DNA of 29,865 nucleotides from a virus. Its lineage: Duplodnaviria; Caudoviricetes. The stretch covers positions 1 through 29,865 of the IMG/VR virus record IMGVR_UViG_3300030010_000013, one strand, 5' to 3'. Position 1 is the first letter of the stretch, and each line of letters opens with the position of its first letter. Both the position numbers and the translations under genes were made by a program. The notes under the pieces are model-generated. The model saw only the letters and a list, made by a program, of their open reading frames with translations, had not been told where the DNA came from and searched no databases. This document shows positions 1 through 13,474 of the stretch, one piece after another.

Positions 1-1103
1 ACCGTGGCTGCGTGCGTGGCTTCGTCCGTGGCTTCGCGCGTGGCTTCGTCCGTGGCTTCGCGCGTGGCATCGTCCGTGGCTTCGAACGTGGCTTCGTCCG
101 TGGCGTCGGCCGTTGCGGCGTCCGTGGCGGCGCGCGTGGCGGCGAACGTGGCTGCGAACGTGGCTGCGTGCGTGGCTGCGTGCGTGGCTGCGCGCGTGGC
201 GTCGCTCGTGGCGGCGAACGTGGCTGCGAACGTGGCTTCGTCCGTGGCGGCGAACGTGGCTTCGTCCGTGGCGTCGCGCGTGGCTTCGTCCGTGGCGTCG
301 CGCGTGGCTTCGTGCGTGGCGGCGCGCGTGGCGGCGCGCGTGGCGGCGAACGTGGCTTCGTCCGTGGCGTCGGCCGTTGCGGCGAACGTGGCGGCGCGCG
401 TGGCGGCGAACGTGGCGGCGAACGTGGCTGCGTGCGTGGCTTCGTCCGTGGCGTCGGCCGTTGCGGCGAACGTGGCTTCGCGCGTGGCATCGTCCGTGGC
501 GTCGCGCGTGGCTTCGCGCGTGGCGGCGCGCGTGGCGGCGCGCGTGGCTTCGCTCGTGGCGGCGAACGTGGCGGCGAACGTGGCTGCGAACGTGGCTGCG
601 TGCGTGGCTTCGTCCGTGGCGTCGCGCGTGGCGTAGTCCGTGGCGTCGGCCGTTGCGGCGAACGTTGCGGCGAACGTCGCATCGAGCGTGGCGACGGCTG
701 TGGCGGCGGGCACGGCAGAGTTCGGGATCCCCAGATACGATCTGATGCACGCCTCAGTAACGATCCTGGCCGCGTGCGCCACCGAAGCCATTATGGTCGA
801 CTCCGACGGGACGCACCCAAACAACTGGCGCGCCCGGCCTGGATTGGCTCGGAGCCAGATGGCTCCGCTCGCGACCGAGCTAGCCACAGCTCCGACGAGC
901 GGACTCGAAACGAACGCAACGCGTAATGGTGGCGTGAGATTAGCGGCGCGGTACAGGTCCGCCGCCGCCGCCGCCGCCTCGACCTTGTCCTCGGCGCTCA
1001 TCGGATCACAATTGAGCGCGTTTGCGATCCACTGGTCACGGACCTCTCCGAGCCGCGTCTTGTGCTCGGGGTGATCGTCGAACGAATATAGCTTATGTGC
1101 CAT
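1..1103 (-). CDS. DUF6745-type phage protein with a long Ala-Thr-X-Z tetrapeptide repeat; runs off the left edge (3'-truncated, absent from the ORF track)
   Basis: ATG at 1103 with GGAGG 7 nt upstream; the frame stays open to base 1. My translation is MAHKLYSFDDHPEHKTRLGEVRDQWIANALNCDPMSAEDKVEAAAAAADLYRAANLTPPLRVAFVSSPLVG..., then ATLDATFAATFAATADATDYATRDATDEATHA... The N-terminus (W..., LY.AA.L.PP..V.V.SP) followed by a low-complexity repeat matches my recollection of DUF6745-containing proteins; the DUF6745 domain itself would lie outside the window. Confidence 0.8.
   Translation of the reverse strand, partial: MAHKLYSFDDHPEHKTRLGEVRDQWIANALNCDPMSAEDKVEAAAAAADLYRAANLTPPLRVAFVSSPLVGAVASSVASGAIWLRANPGRARQLFGCVPSESTIMASVAHAARIVTEACIRSYLGIPNSAVPAATAVATLDATFAATFAATADATDYATRDATDEATHAATFAATFAATFAATSEATRAATRAATREATRDATDDATREATFAATADATDEATHAATFAATFAATRAATFAATADATDEATFAATRAATRAATHEATRDATDEATRDATDEATFAATDEATFAATFAATSDATRAATHAATHAATFAATFAATRAATDAATADATDEATFEATDDATREATDEATREATDEATHAAT
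3..710 (-). repeat. 12-bp tandem repeat, 59 units in unbroken register (constant CGTGGC hexamer plus variable hexamer)
   Basis: CGTGGC (or CGTTGC/CGTCGC/TGTGGC) recurs every 12 nt from 3 to 699; on the minus strand this reads GCC ACG NNN GNN = Ala-Thr-X-(mostly Ala/Glu/Asp). Confidence 0.95.
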
Positions 1104-1116
1104 GAAATATCCTCCG

Positions 1117-1210
1117 CGCACCGAGCGGGAATCGAACCCGCATTACCCTTGTTCTTGTCACCCCCCACGGGGGGGTCGATTGTAGGAGCATTACCCTAAT
1201 GCTTCGGTGC
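1117..1210 (-). ncRNA. tRNA-like element (non-canonical, expanded anticodon arm, no encoded CCA)
   Basis: Minus strand: 7-bp acceptor stem GCACCGA/TCGGTGC, D-arm GCAT-TAGGGTA-ATGC, T-arm GCGGG-TTCGATT-CCCGC. The anticodon region is replaced by about 45 nt containing the hairpin ACCCCCC-CGT-GGGGGGT. Confidence 0.75.
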
Positions 1211-1252: not shown

Positions 1253-1723
1253 CTAGTCAGCGACCTGACGAGGCAGCTCACCAGGAGAGTACTCGGCGTG
1301 AATCGTGACCAGGTAGTTGCCGGCCGGGATCACGAGCTCTCCTGGCTCCCCCAGCTTGCGCGCCCGGGGAACTCGATGAGCGTCGCAGAAGTATGACAGC
1401 TCGTGGCCCTCCCCCTGAACGTGCGTCGCGACGACCCCTGGGATGCGCGGGCAGATCTCGCACATGGTCTTGTGCTCCTCGTGGCGCAGTGCCACGGGAG
1501 CCGTCCCCCGCATGTATCGCGCGTCCTCCTCGGTCCTCATGAGGGACGCTCGGCGCGACGGGATGCGGTGAGCATGGCCGGTGACCTCGCCCTCCTGCAG
1601 CACGAGTCCGCGCGCGCCGCGCGCCTTCACTGGCTTGGCGTCCGCGGGCACCGCGTCGACGAGGGTCAGGAAAACATCGCCCTGACGGTAGGAGATTGGT
1701 GGCGTGTAGTTCGTGTTCGACAT
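1253..1723 (-). CDS. conserved hypothetical His-motif protein (YRQGDV...EGEVTGHAH...HEEH...EYSP..RQVAD) with a Cys/His insert
   Basis: 156-aa ORF. The motif set is the one I associate with the small partner gene found beside DUF6745-type genes. Promoter-like elements lie directly upstream. Confidence 0.8.
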   Translation of the reverse strand: MSNTNYTPPISYRQGDVFLTLVDAVPADAKPVKARGARGLVLQEGEVTGHAHRIPSRRASLMRTEEDARYMRGTAPVALRHEEHKTMCEICPRIPGVVATHVQGEGHELSYFCDAHRVPRARKLGEPGELVIPAGNYLVTIHAEYSPGELPRQVAD

Positions 1724-1729
1724 GAGAGC

Positions 1730-1800
1730 ATCATGAGTCGAACGGGTAGGTTTGTCAATACACGAATCTGTATTGACACTAGTTCGACGACTGGTAGGAT
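1730..1800. promoter_or_regulatory. back-to-back sigma70-type promoters with a palindromic operator-like site
   Basis: Minus: TTGACA(1758-1753)-N17-CATGAT-N6-ATG(1723). Plus: TTGACA(1773-1778)-N16-TAGGAT (TGn-extended)-N6-ATG(1807). Perfect inverted repeat TGTCAATACA-N6-TGTATTGACA at 1753-1778. Confidence 0.75.
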
Positions 1801-9012: not shown

Positions 9013-9503
9013 GCCTTCCCGTGTGGCATGACTCGGATCACGCCTCCGGTGCCGCCGACGACCGCCTTGAGGCGACTCCTGCGACTGCCAAAGTTTCCCA
9101 GGTGGATCATCGCGCCGCCAGCGGTGGTTCCCGCGGTGGTCACGGTCAAGTTGGTCGCGGTCGCGCCGGCCGAGATTGCGACGTACGCCGTGGTCGGGTT
9201 CTCCTGGATCCAGTTCCCTGCGCCGCTGTCGAAGTTGCTCACATCGGCGACGCCGCCCGGACCGCCGAGCCCGCTTGGCATGTTGCTGTCCTCGATGGTG
9301 AGGACCACGACGATCGCAGCATCCCACACGATGTGGATGCTCTCGAGCGGAGCGGATTCACCGCCGAGCGCAAACACGTAGGTCGTGCCGGACGCCAATG
9401 TGACGCCCTTCTGTGCCGGGTCGCCGATGCGTGGCTCGACCTTGGTCCCGGAGGTCAGAATAAAGGCGGGGAGTTCCAGGCCGGTGGGGTGAGCGTAGTT
9501 CAT
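9009..9503 (-). CDS. hypothetical virion protein (beta-rich)
   Basis: 164 aa, G/T/A/V-rich, coupled by ATGA overlaps on both sides. Confidence 0.7.
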   Translation of the reverse strand: MNYAHPTGLELPAFILTSGTKVEPRIGDPAQKGVTLASGTTYVFALGGESAPLESIHIVWDAAIVVVLTIEDSNMPSGLGGPGGVADVSNFDSGAGNWIQENPTTAYVAISAGATATNLTVTTAGTTAGGAMIHLGNFGSRRSRLKAVVGGTGGVIRVMPHGKA

Positions 9504-12500
9504 GGGCGAGCTCCTTGAGTCATCTTGGCGATCGTGGTCGGTGCGCGCAGGGTCGCGCCTGAGGCGGATGGAGGAGGTTGCGGCGGAGCGTAGCCCTGCT
9601 GGGCCCAGGCTGCGTAGGATGGAGTCATCGTCGAATCGAGCGGGACGTCGAACAGCAAGCTGGCTTGCTCCCGGCGCCCATACGGGACCGGGTGATCGAC
9701 ATCGGAAGCCTGCTCAAGTAGGCGCTTCTGCGCCGCCGCGAACAGCGACGGGTAGACGACCTTCAGCGCCTCTGCGGCCTGAGGTGTGACCACGCCTCCG
9801 GAGGCGACCTGTTCGAGTACGGTTGCCGGATCCGTCGCGGCCTGCACGTAGCGGGCGAACTTCGTCATCTCGCCACGGTTTGGCGTGTACGCCGTGCTCC
9901 CAGGGAGGATGCCGGGGGCCTCGAGCGGCTTGGGCATCTTGTCGAGGAGGAACTGGACTTGGCGCTCGAACCCGTCGGCGATCGCGTTGACGATGGTCGG
10001 GTCAGCGGCGCGGATGCGCGCCTGCACGGCCTGGCGGATCGCGCCTGGCTGTGCGGCATCGGCGAGCTCGGCGCTGCGACGCTGATACAACTCGGCGATA
10101 TCTTTCGTGTCACGGTCGACCTTGCCGATGGAACCCGGGTGCGAGCCATCGAACAGCCGGTGCGCCAGGATCGCCGCTGCGCCGCCCGCCGCGGGGGATG
10201 CTGCGGTCGCAGCCTTGCTCGAACCGTGGAGGATGCCGTCCACGGCGGCGAACACCCGTTGCTTGGTCTCCGCCGCCTTTCTGGCGATGGTCGTCTCAGC
10301 GGTCTCGGCGATCCGGCCGCCGAACCGGCCGAAGGTCTTTCCGATGACTCGGGCTCGTAGGTAGACGCTCAACAAGGGGCCGATTACCGGGATGTCGTGA
10401 GGATCTGGGAGTGGGACGCCCATCATCCGCAGGGCCTCGTAGATGGTCCCTGCGTCCGCCAGGTGACCGGATCGCGATGTGGTACCGGTCGATGCGCCAG
10501 CCAGATTCGCCGCGTGCTTGGCGCCGATCTCGTCGCGAAGTCCAGGCTCGCGCACGGTCTTGTCTCCGCGGGCGAACTCCTCGCGAACCTGGCGCCCTAT
10601 GGTCGGATCCCTCACCGTCTTGTCGGCGGCGGCGCGCGCAACCGGGGTTTCCCCGCCGAGCATTGCGTGGCCGGATGCCTTGGTGAGCTGGTCGGCACCG
10701 AGCGCGGTGGCCTGCTGCGTGGCCTGCTCCGCATGGGACTGCGCCGCGCGGAACCCCTCCGCGCGCGCGGCGGCGCCGGATGGGACCTGGATCCCCAGCG
10801 CCTGCGCGAGCTCGGCCAGCCCGGCATGTGCGGACTCGTACCGGCCGATGACGCGCGATGCCTCGTCGATATCCGCGGCGACGTTATCAGGGCGCTGTTT
10901 GAGCGCGTCGGCGATCCGCTCATCAGGAGTCATCGCGCGACGGGACATCATCTCATCTACCGCCTGACCAGCCGCCACCCGCTCCTCTGGCTTCACCTTG
11001 TTGTTGATGCGGAACTCTGCGCTGTTGCGTTCGAGTTCGCTGCCGTGCCATTCGATCTGCCGGCCACGCGCTCCGAGCGCGTTACCCTCGCCGGCCGGTA
11101 CCGACTCGCGCCAGCCAGGGCCTTCGCGGCGGAGTCGGGCGGCGTACTCGCGCGGATCGGTCCTGTTCAGGAGCCCCTGGAGATCTGAGCGCGCCTCGCG
11201 CAGCTCCCCGACCGCAGCGCGCAGCTTGGCTACGGTTGGGTTGCGCGCAGCCAGTTCGGCCTCGACCGGGTCGGGACCGCGTGCCCGCGGTCGCATTCCG
11301 CCCATCGCGCCGAGCTCCTGACCTTGGTCCAGGGCAGACTTCGTCCCTTGTAGCTGCGATAGGAGGTCGCCTCCATGCCCGCCGTCGGGGCGTGACGTCG
11401 GAGCTTCGGGAGACGGTGGCTTCTCATCAACGTAGTCAGGTACGTCAGCAATCTTACCGTCTTCCATGTCGATGAGACGCTTCACAGCTCGGTCCCATCG
11501 CTTGGATGCCTGCTCATACTCAGGTGTCCCGGAAGTGAGCTCGTCGAATTTGGCGCTGAGCAGGTCTTGATGCTCCGACAGCTGGCGCCTGGAGAGCTTG
11601 TCAATAGGCGACTCCAGGGTAACCGACCCACGCTTGACTAACAGGTCGGGAGTGAACTCACCGGGCAGTAACGTGACATGCACCTCACGATATGGAGGAT
11701 ATGTATGAGACGTCCCGTTCTCGAACGTGATCGTAATTGACTTGTCACCGTGAACCACGTGAGACTTCGCGCCTCTCCAGCGAGTCGCCGTCGGGAGCTG
11801 CGGCTTCATTTCGTTGCTGTCGACGCGGAATCGCGACCCCCGTGGGAGAAGCGTCTCGACTTCCGAGCTGAACTTGCTCGGAATCGGAGCGCCGGCCGAA
11901 CCCGCAGGAGTAGCGATGTTTATCACCACGTCCTCGTTGCGAACTTTCGAGTTCGCGTCATGCGACGTCGAAGTGAACGCTGGGTCATCGTACACGTCAC
12001 CTGGCTTGAGCTCGGAGAATCGCTCCTTTGCCCATTTACCGGACAGCCCACGGTACAGCGTCGTGTCTCGCGGGATTCCCGCCTCAGGCATCCGCATCAT
12101 GCTGTCGAGCTGAGCCAAAGCACGGGCATCGGCCCCCTCGAGGTTCTTGCCGGCGCGAAGCGCTCCGTTGATGACCTCGTCACCCCCCTTCGAGTAGTAC
12201 ATGGCGCTGTCGAATTGCTGGCGGCTCATCGCGTGCCCAAACGCCTTTTTGAAGGCCTCGCCCTCGGTATCCGAAAGCGGCCCGGCTGATGTCGACGGCG
12301 TATTGGCGTTGTCGATCTTGCGCTTACCGACACGCGTGCTGTTGAGCTCTCGCGCGCGAGCATCAAGCGCATCGTTCATGGCGTTAGCCGGGTTGGCCGG
12401 TGATGGACCGCCGATTACCTTGGTGTCGATCGGCGGTCGCTTATCGATACGCCCGCCGATTTCCCCGACATCTGGGACATCGAGCCCATGCAGGAGCGTC

Positions 12501-13474
12501 TCGAGCTCCGGGTCGAAGCGGCCCAGGCTGGCCCCTTCGGGGCTGACTTGCGGCGCCTTCAGGTTGCCCAGGAGGCCTTCAAGCTCTACATCATGCGTCG
12601 GGGTCGCGGAGAGCTCGGCGGCGCGCTGCGCGAACGCCGGGTCAGTGGCCAACGCCAAGTTGCGCTGGTCGACGATGGTTTGCTGGGCGCGCTGCATGAG
12701 CGTGTCACCGTCATCCAGCGCCGCACCAAGCTCCTTGGACGCGGCTGCGTGAGCCTCCTCGACGGCCTGCGGGGTGACCTCCTGCGAGGGGAACAACTTG
12801 CGGGCCGGCAAATCGCGCGGGGCGCCGCCGAGCAGCCCGCGCGCCTTCGCCAGGGCCTCTCCGGACAGCGCCAACGCGCCCGACCCGGCTCCGCCCCACA
12901 GCGCCCCCTGTCCCATCGCGCCGACGAACGCATCGGCAGAGAGGTCCCGGTCGCCAAGTGCCACGTCCGCCACGTAGGCGCCGGCGTTTTGCAGCGCTCC
13001 CTCTGCGGCGCCGCTGGCGACGTGGGCGCCGATGCGCGCTACCGTGCTGGCCCCCTCCCCCAGGTCGGCAAGGCCGCTGCCGATTCGGCTCGCGATCCCG
13101 GCGGGGGAGCGCGCGAGCAACGAGCCAGGAGCGGCTCCCAGGAGCGACGGGGCTATCGCGCCTGCGATCTGCCCGGCGGTTCCCAGGGTGCCGTGTTGCG
13201 AGCGCGCCGAGCTGAGCCGCTCAAGCTGGCCCGGGTCAAGCAGCCCGGCGAGCGCCACGTCGGATGCGCCGAGCGTGAGCCCGGACAGCGCGCCGGTGGC
13301 GAGCGAGTTGATGCCGCCGACAATGCCGCTCTGGTCACTCGGCGCCGCCGCCGCGGTGGTCTGAGCAGCCTCCTGCAGGCTTACCGGCTGATAGCCTTGG
13401 ATGACGGCGTGGCCGACCTCGCCCTCGGGGACATTGATGACTTCTCCGGTTCCTGGGTGACGAAGAACGGGCAC
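9500..13474 (-). CDS. large internal virion/ejection protein with an embedded VIP2-like ADP-ribosyltransferase domain
   Basis: 1324 aa. The Ala/Gly-rich N-terminus (GALSGLTLGASD) is typical of podophage ejection proteins. Central motifs YYS.GG...INGALR, TLYRG, FTSTS and EVETLLPRGSRFRV lie at about 12200-11820. Confidence 0.8.
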   Translation of the reverse strand: MPVLRHPGTGEVINVPEGEVGHAVIQGYQPVSLQEAAQTTAAAAPSDQSGIVGGINSLATGALSGLTLGASDVALAGLLDPGQLERLSSARSQHGTLGTAGQIAGAIAPSLLGAAPGSLLARSPAGIASRIGSGLADLGEGASTVARIGAHVASGAAEGALQNAGAYVADVALGDRDLSADAFVGAMGQGALWGGAGSGALALSGEALAKARGLLGGAPRDLPARKLFPSQEVTPQAVEEAHAAASKELGAALDDGDTLMQRAQQTIVDQRNLALATDPAFAQRAAELSATPTHDVELEGLLGNLKAPQVSPEGASLGRFDPELETLLHGLDVPDVGEIGGRIDKRPPIDTKVIGGPSPANPANAMNDALDARARELNSTRVGKRKIDNANTPSTSAGPLSDTEGEAFKKAFGHAMSRQQFDSAMYYSKGGDEVINGALRAGKNLEGADARALAQLDSMMRMPEAGIPRDTTLYRGLSGKWAKERFSELKPGDVYDDPAFTSTSHDANSKVRNEDVVINIATPAGSAGAPIPSKFSSEVETLLPRGSRFRVDSNEMKPQLPTATRWRGAKSHVVHGDKSITITFENGTSHTYPPYREVHVTLLPGEFTPDLLVKRGSVTLESPIDKLSRRQLSEHQDLLSAKFDELTSGTPEYEQASKRWDRAVKRLIDMEDGKIADVPDYVDEKPPSPEAPTSRPDGGHGGDLLSQLQGTKSALDQGQELGAMGGMRPRARGPDPVEAELAARNPTVAKLRAAVGELREARSDLQGLLNRTDPREYAARLRREGPGWRESVPAGEGNALGARGRQIEWHGSELERNSAEFRINNKVKPEERVAAGQAVDEMMSRRAMTPDERIADALKQRPDNVAADIDEASRVIGRYESAHAGLAELAQALGIQVPSGAAARAEGFRAAQSHAEQATQQATALGADQLTKASGHAMLGGETPVARAAADKTVRDPTIGRQVREEFARGDKTVREPGLRDEIGAKHAANLAGASTGTTSRSGHLADAGTIYEALRMMGVPLPDPHDIPVIGPLLSVYLRARVIGKTFGRFGGRIAETAETTIARKAAETKQRVFAAVDGILHGSSKAATAASPAAGGAAAILAHRLFDGSHPGSIGKVDRDTKDIAELYQRRSAELADAAQPGAIRQAVQARIRAADPTIVNAIADGFERQVQFLLDKMPKPLEAPGILPGSTAYTPNRGEMTKFARYVQAATDPATVLEQVASGGVVTPQAAEALKVVYPSLFAAAQKRLLEQASDVDHPVPYGRREQASLLFDVPLDSTMTPSYAAWAQQGYAPPQPPPSASGATLRAPTTIAKMTQGARP

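Follow-up and report, generated by a model that had tools for sequence, protein, structure and literature searches.

The window, i.e., the whole 29,865-nt stretch of DNA analyzed here, is taken from the IMG/VR record IMGVR_UViG_3300030010_000013, which is 51% complete and was found in peat metagenomes. A scan of its 27 open reading frames (ORFs) revealed terminase, head protein, amidase, and YqaJ/RecT genes, which mark it as a phage record. The element described below was covered without differences in two DNA runs (X21 and X23), possibly the source sample, and was not covered by the parts of two others (X14 and X15) that were read; no RNA data set was among those listed as containing the phage sequence. 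No capsid relative was detected among annotated phages. Since the RecT relatives among annotated phages reached only about 30%, no host was assigned. The structural region of the window (9500-13474, minus strand) encodes a 1324-aa protein with an ADP-ribosyltransferase domain at residues 413 to 554.

Near one end of the window, a tRNA-like cassette is flanked on both sides by protein genes of the same (minus) strand, with one promoter-like site upstream. The features of the locus are as follows.

1 to 1103, minus strand: downstream gene, open at the window end; an N-terminal domain followed by short Ala/Thr-rich repeats
1111 to 1117, minus strand: discriminator G1117 (G73), C1116 (C74), and Shine-Dalgarno (SD) site GGAGG (1115-1111), with the ATG at 1103 and no CCA
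1117 to 1210, minus strand: tRNA-like cassette, 94 nt including discriminator G1117
1204 to 1210 (5' strand) and 1118 to 1124 (3' strand), minus strand: acceptor stem, 7/7 Watson-Crick pairs
1203, minus strand: linker, a single A between the acceptor and the D arm (U8 missing)
1188 to 1202, minus strand: D arm, loop TAGGGTA with GG; the first D-loop base is T, so there is no A14
1187, minus strand: single base T between the D arm and the 40-nt arm
1147 to 1186, minus strand: arm at the anticodon position, 40 nt, with 3 bp (CCT/AGG), a 7x10 internal loop, and a 7-bp hairpin (1176-1160)
1142 to 1146, minus strand: variable loop, 5 nt
1125 to 1141, minus strand: canonical T arm, 5 bp and loop TTCGATT
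Just before 1210, minus strand: predicted RNase P cut
After 1117, minus strand: predicted RNase Z cut
1213 to 1234, no strand assigned: inverted repeat 2 nt before the cassette, predicted to give the upstream fragment a 3'-terminal hairpin (matched by 2/100 shuffles)
1253 to 1723, minus strand: upstream gene, 156 aa, phrog_27831, of which the downstream gene is the usual partner
1730 to 1758, minus strand: sigma-70-like promoter site, separated from the upstream ATG by 7 nt, 10/12 consensus

An earlier note on this DNA had described a perfect acceptor stem, a D arm, and a TTCGATT T loop, and all three are present on the minus strand. The single nucleotide between the acceptor and D stems in place of U8-A9 (A1203 is the sole linker), the absence of CCA, and the direct contact with the SD site (G1117, C1116, and then GGAGG) were likewise borne out. 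The anticodon arm is indeed replaced by a hairpin enclosed by CCT and AGG; its length is 40 nt, however, and reaches the reported 45 nt only if the variable loop is counted. The window contains no other tRNA-like element. The 40-nt arm has no match of at least 11 nt elsewhere in the window, and a search for antisense targets there yielded no complement of at least 11 nt.

The promoter site at 1758-1730 is the likely source of a predicted transcript bearing the cassette; no further minus-strand promoter-like site and no terminator were found between positions 900 and 2400. TTGACA-type sites occur in the window at 1212-1234, 1730-1800, and 3068. The one at 1212 has no clear -10 element and resembles, in reversed orientation, a promoter region of the closest relative (G001, described below). 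The divergent promoter-like pair 1758-1730/1773-1800 ends 7 nt ahead of an ATG, a spacing suggesting leaderless messengers. Two repeats were also observed: an 8-nt tandem duplication at 1239-1254, right after the upstream stop codon, and a long run of 4-residue repeats encoded by the 3' part of the downstream gene (window 1-700, minus strand), the sequence of which varies among relatives.

Scored directly, the cassette reached 29.9 bits with the Rfam tRNA model (E = 5.5e-4; gathering score, 29), whereas the filtered Rfam scan at the gathering threshold returned 0 matches for it. ARAGORN, for which a pseudo or undetermined call had been expected, found 0 genes. A Plastid-ycf2 match on the plus strand was below the cut-off and was rejected; the same model also fires on the reverse of true tRNAs. 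The cassette folds better than most of its shuffled versions (z = -2.98; 4/200 shuffles equally good), and the acceptor, T, and D stems had pair probabilities of 0.79 to 1.0 in 4/4 sequence contexts (up to 400 nt), compared with only 0.47 to 0.59 for the CCT/AGG stem.

The cassette is built of parts that come from tRNA. Its D arm matches that of a canonical phage tRNA (L017) at all 15 nt, and because this D arm is preceded by TA in the L017 tRNA, we read U8 as missing from the cassette. A D-arm pattern matched 15 loci in IMG/VR, i.e., the L017 tRNA and 14 unrelated loci. The last 22 nt of the T arm and acceptor match exactly the tRNA-Gly of Streptomyces phages, which carry U73; a pattern of this 3' end matched 10 loci, and the three examined were tRNA-Gly. 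Annotated phages (50,697 records) yielded partial matches only, none of which covered 80% of the cassette query. The 7-bp acceptor, 5-bp T stem, and consensus T loop are those of a canonical tRNA. U8, the two linker bases, and A14 are missing, and 3 bp, a 7x10 loop, and a hairpin stand in place of a 5-bp anticodon stem with a 7-nt loop and U33. Since there is neither an anticodon loop nor a bulge-helix-bulge, neither decoding nor splicing is expected. The cassette is real and non-decoding, in agreement with the proposal that it is not a decoding tRNA (i.e., U8, A14, a 7-nt anticodon loop, and a splice motif are all lacking).

Further known classes were considered and rejected. An attP site that copies the 3' end of a host tRNA comprises the 3' part only and lies beside an integrase; here the 5' acceptor strand and the D arm are present, and there is no integrase among the 27 ORFs. 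For a YrlA Y RNA, there is no Rfam match and no Ro60 gene among the 27 ORFs of this partial record. The cassette resembles tRNA-Pyl in its single linker base, G1-C72, and G73. However, tRNA-Pyl has a 6-bp anticodon stem, a CUA anticodon, and a 3-nt variable loop (PMC7609411), and the cassette has a 5-nt variable loop, GG, and TTC without a CUA loop. Its 7/5 acceptor/T structure also differs from the 8/4 or 9/3 structure of allo-tRNAs and tRNA-Sec-like molecules (PMC5389517).

The upstream and downstream genes are usual partners, lying from a few to about 60 bases apart in relatives (6/6 loci in one set and more elsewhere). To survey the slot between them, we used 130 loci of the downstream gene family (the best 80 of 174 metagenome loci, 41 viral loci, and 9 genomic loci). 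A canonical T arm stands 35 to 38 nt ahead of the start codon in 5 of the 130 loci, i.e., this phage in three copies and its closest relative (G001) in two, so that the slot is filled in only two phages. Three more loci have loose hairpins further from the start, and three had less than 250 nt of upstream sequence. The earlier note had reasoned that an ordinary tRNA in this slot in relatives would point to simple decay; none was found in the 130 loci. The cassette pattern was missing in 46 of 47 related virus records, and the Rfam tRNA model detected nothing in four of five other relatives and one canonical tRNA in the fifth (G019). In relatives without the cassette, stop and start codons are a few bases apart, often without a clear SD site; in G010 (terminase, 64%), the insert is missing and the two genes are joined directly.

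G001 is syntenic with the window (64 to 79% nucleotide identity; terminase, 73%), and four-fold sites in the two flanking genes are nearly saturated (34/94 identical; 36%). Its version of the element in this slot is 44 nt long, with a middle of only 12 nt, and scored 21.3 bits with the Rfam tRNA model. The T arm is identical at 15/17 positions, with both changes compensated within one pair. Also retained are the SD spacing, a stretch of exactly 7 nt and a purine, and all 10 bases that follow the discriminator. The blastn match between the window and G001 ends at 1141, the first T-stem base. The acceptor of the 44-nt cassette has one mismatch and seals in 245/2000 shuffles, which is not significant alone. 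On either side of the G001 insert (L032:2422-2494) lies a copy of a 6-nt direct repeat containing the start codon, an arrangement that leaves a Met-Asn-stop remnant.

A second cassette in G001 (C1:34165-34286, minus strand, 122 nt; L322 and L316) stands directly ahead of the SD site of a Cpn10 (groES-like) gene. It has a 7/7 acceptor, a D arm, an expanded branched middle, a T arm, and A73 followed by the same six bases, and it came to light through the Rfam model rather than the search pattern. A promoter-like site about 100 nt upstream of it is at chance level. The IMG/VR pattern built from these elements matched 10 loci (four canonical tRNAs, two G001 cassettes, a cassette in G048, one expanded tRNA in a tRNA array, and two chance matches). 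The G048 cassette (C1:21676-21764, minus strand, 89 nt; L323) has the same plan, with a rod-like middle, a strong hairpin before it, and a 63-aa gene after it. This gene resembles clusters that are commonest in Myxococcota, a lead that serves as a host pointer only. G048 shares capsid (26%) and terminase (25%) families with the window phage, and it alone shares the capsid family among five records tested. Another G048 element (C1:18121-18165; L339) is a T arm resembling a tRNA-Leu 3' half, with no SD site after it; it is possibly an attachment site.

The four cassettes of the three phages keep the T arm with an invariant T loop, the 12-bp acceptor/T geometry, purine 73, C74, and the SD site; since the T loop, the last acceptor pairs, and the SD site were part of the search pattern, they are not independent evidence in G048. 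Acceptor sequences differ (3 to 6 of 7 on the 3' strand) and are still paired 7/7 in three of the four. In all three full-size cassettes U8 is missing and the D and T elbow bases are fully kept. The middles range from 12 to 90 nt and are unrelated; the 40-nt arm is not common to the relatives, and in the syntenic G001 copy the middle is nearly gone. Across the cassettes, it is the frame and spacing that persist, not the middle.

A looser pattern (T loop, SD site, and ATG) matched 114 loci from 29 of the 64 IMG/VR parts (about 270 estimated overall), and a control pattern matched 34. The 100 distinct hits comprised 54 canonical tRNAs, 17 non-canonical forms with a sealed acceptor, 19 in which only the T arm was present, and 10 lacking a T stem; the corresponding counts for the 25 distinct control hits were 13, 1, 4, and 7. 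Acceptors were sealed in 17 of the 36 non-canonical T arms, and because chance sealing is 4.9%, these sealed elements are real. The enrichment of non-canonical forms before SD sites over the control was not significant (17:54 versus 1:13; P = 0.28). Another tRNA was nearby in 0/14 sealed versus 20/52 canonical elements (P = 0.0065, post hoc), in a comparison that required at least 300 nt upstream and thus dropped 3 sealed and 2 canonical rows; when bare T motifs were also counted as neighbors, the values were 3/14 and 24/52 (P = 0.13). Since canonical CCA-less tRNAs abut SD sites in 54 of the 100 hits, this position needs no special function. A tRNA against an SD site is therefore nothing unusual; forms that do not decode turn up repeatedly and tend to be solitary. 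Unrelated tRNAs from the same pattern share 14 to 17 of the 17 T-arm bases, so repeated capture can mimic conservation.

Further forms were also observed. Elements of 102 to 141 nt with expanded middles stand before SD sites in unrelated phages (L100/L132, L112/L118, L119, L147, L074, L059, L148, and L318). Minimal elements of 41 to 61 nt consist of an acceptor and a T arm (L037/L057/L070, L061/L129, L102, L124, L091, L343, and L347), and those of L037 and L061 sit between a terminator-like hairpin and an SD site. ARAGORN called introns in a few other phage hits. A hammerhead type II-like match (L011:928-1009, minus strand) scored 26.4 bits, below the gathering score of 37.

Our best reading, in which we place even confidence, is that the cassette would serve in cis as a tRNA-derived, non-decoding mark in a phage operon, recognized by host RNase P and RNase Z. 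If the two genes are cotranscribed and the fold forms in vivo, a transcript from 1723 would carry both genes and the cassette. Host RNase P would cut before G1210, leaving the upstream messenger with a hairpin end (1213-1234), and RNase Z would cut after G1117, giving a downstream messenger with a 13-nt leader starting at the SD site. The downstream gene would thus gain its own messenger, which might affect its expression. With an RNase P cut alone, the cassette would remain on the downstream messenger; because C74 may slow RNase Z, it might stay there as a base-paired 5' cap. Simulating the cut did not increase predicted access to the SD site.

RNase P uses the elbow as the point from which it measures the stacked T stem and acceptor (PMC4919913). 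It also pairs with C74 and cleaves precursors lacking CCA in vivo, and RNase Z cuts such precursors after the discriminator (PMC1874595). The parts kept in the cassettes are those that these processing enzymes read. Of the readings in the earlier note, that of an mRNA-processing signal is the one best supported by the comparison with relatives, with cleavage as a prediction. The accompanying statement that T-box readers ignore the anticodon was wrong, since T-box stem I reads both the anticodon and the elbow (PMC4919913).

Decay of a captured tRNA gene with a tRNA-Gly-like 3' half, which host enzymes may still cut without selection, is an alternative that we consider unlikely but serious. It would account for the loss of U8, the broken anticodon arm, the G73 in place of U73, and the patchy distribution among the 130 loci and the 47 related virus records. 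It is also consistent with the frequent occurrence of canonical tRNAs before SD sites (including a tRNA-Val in G049 with the same downstream six bases), with the 6-nt repeat flanking the G001 insert at the old start codon, and with the 10-nt repeat in the cassette, which may be a duplication scar. However, the acceptor, T arm, and spacing have been spared in all four cassettes while four-fold sites have fallen to 36% identity, an intact tRNA occupies the slot in 0/130 loci, and three different gene junctions carry elements of the same plan. We regard as rather improbable that the cassette is a small, stable, trans-acting RNA released by tRNA-processing enzymes, like RNA C and RNA D of phage T4, with the frame as a scaffold and with the 40-nt arm or the frame binding a host or phage target (e.g., a tRNA-sensing defense protein). 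The complete elbow bases in the three full-size cassettes and the 94-nt RNA that cutting at both ends would free speak for such a product, but the middles are unrelated between cassettes and nearly gone in the syntenic copy, the window holds no complement of the required length, no promoter or terminator of its own was found, and there is no anticodon loop as bait. The last point, together with the lack of conservation of the middle, also argues against the proposed decoy for anticodon nucleases, which cut the anticodon loop.

An uncut structural insulator or ribosome-loading aid, in which the sealed fold would shield the SD site from upstream RNA and uncouple translation of the two genes, seems improbable. 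The fixed spacing would suit it, as would the close stop-start junctions of relatives, where the cassette brings its own SD site; yet any stable hairpin would serve, the T-loop consensus and 12-bp length are nevertheless kept, and predicted access to the SD site with the cassette present is only 0.05 to 0.83 per base. Splicing of an intron-containing tRNA to a working tRNA is very improbable, even though the extra sequence lies at the anticodon position and introns were called in a few other phage hits. A bulge-helix-bulge is a 4-bp helix between two 3-nt bulges; the cassette has none, and no 4-bp helix with even three pairs can be formed between the two loop strands. Joining at 37/38 would leave two mismatched stem pairs, with A at both 32 and 33, U8 is missing, and the 40-nt arm is far too short for a group I intron. 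The least credible alternative, to which we give almost no weight, is a conformational switch driven by a repeated decamer. The decamer does occur twice, as the earlier note had reported, in the D arm (1197-1188) and just before the T arm (1149-1140), and such a 10-mer repeat is above chance (26/20000 shuffles). The alternative pairing proposed for it, however, had a probability of 0.00 in four contexts and costs 7 kcal/mol (-34.6 versus -41.6), and the repeat is missing from the three related cassettes.

Beyond this locus, the reading as a cis cutting mark leads to a wider proposal, which we put forward tentatively as a possibility: a portable tRNA-derived cassette (acceptor, T arm, built-in SD site, and free middle) might act as phage mRNA punctuation, with host RNase P and RNase Z splitting long early operons into separately started and separately stabilized messengers. 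If so, bacterial viruses would have their own equivalent of mitochondrial tRNA punctuation, recurring across many unrelated phages and overlooked by tRNA finders, and some phage "pseudo-tRNAs" would be selected processing signals. A small phage could then tune neighboring genes via essential host enzymes with no protein of its own. Annotation discards a recurrent class of such elements (17 distinct sealed, non-canonical ones in less than half of IMG/VR), for which the proposal would supply a function open to testing. It would also offer a concrete example bearing on how RNase P cleavage is linked to ribosome binding, an open question raised in PMC11143913. If false, the cassette would be a tidy example of phage tRNA gene decay.

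No description of SD-abutting tRNA-like cassettes in phage operons was found in the literature searched, which included few subscription papers; virus tRNA-like candidates have been listed in bulk (PMC10690425), and such lists could hold related elements. The RNA C and RNA D of T4 reportedly have a tRNA-like shape and are located in tRNA clusters, whereas the cassette is solitary in the window and abuts an SD site. Both are phage non-coding RNAs described as of unknown function (PMC9697503). The tRNA-Gly(UCC) of Streptomyces phages shares the identical last 22 nt and the lack of an encoded CCA with the cassette; unlike it, this tRNA has U8, a 5-bp anticodon stem, a 7-nt loop, and U73. The bacterial Y RNA YrlA is also a tRNA-like module without decoding and, in M. 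smegmatis, is cut by RNase P and receives CCA, but its ends are closed by a Ro60-binding stem and it lies beside the Ro60 gene (PMC4201824). Non-tRNA substrates of bacterial RNase P include phage M3 RNA, the C4 antisense RNA of P1/P7, and operon mRNAs (PMC11143913). In contrast to these, the cassette is a near-complete tRNA frame between protein genes, and it differs from C4 in having no Rfam C4 match and no antisense target in the window. By analogy, the cassette would work most like the t-elements of plant mitochondria, which set mRNA 5' and 3' ends through RNase Z and RNase P (PMC1920247). Like them, it combines an intact T-arm motif with a non-canonical cloverleaf whose acceptor is sealed, in keeping with the definition given there. 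Unlike them, it occurs in phages of bacteria and directly on an SD site, and its ends are predicted; the likeness would thus be one of plan, with no shared descent claimed.
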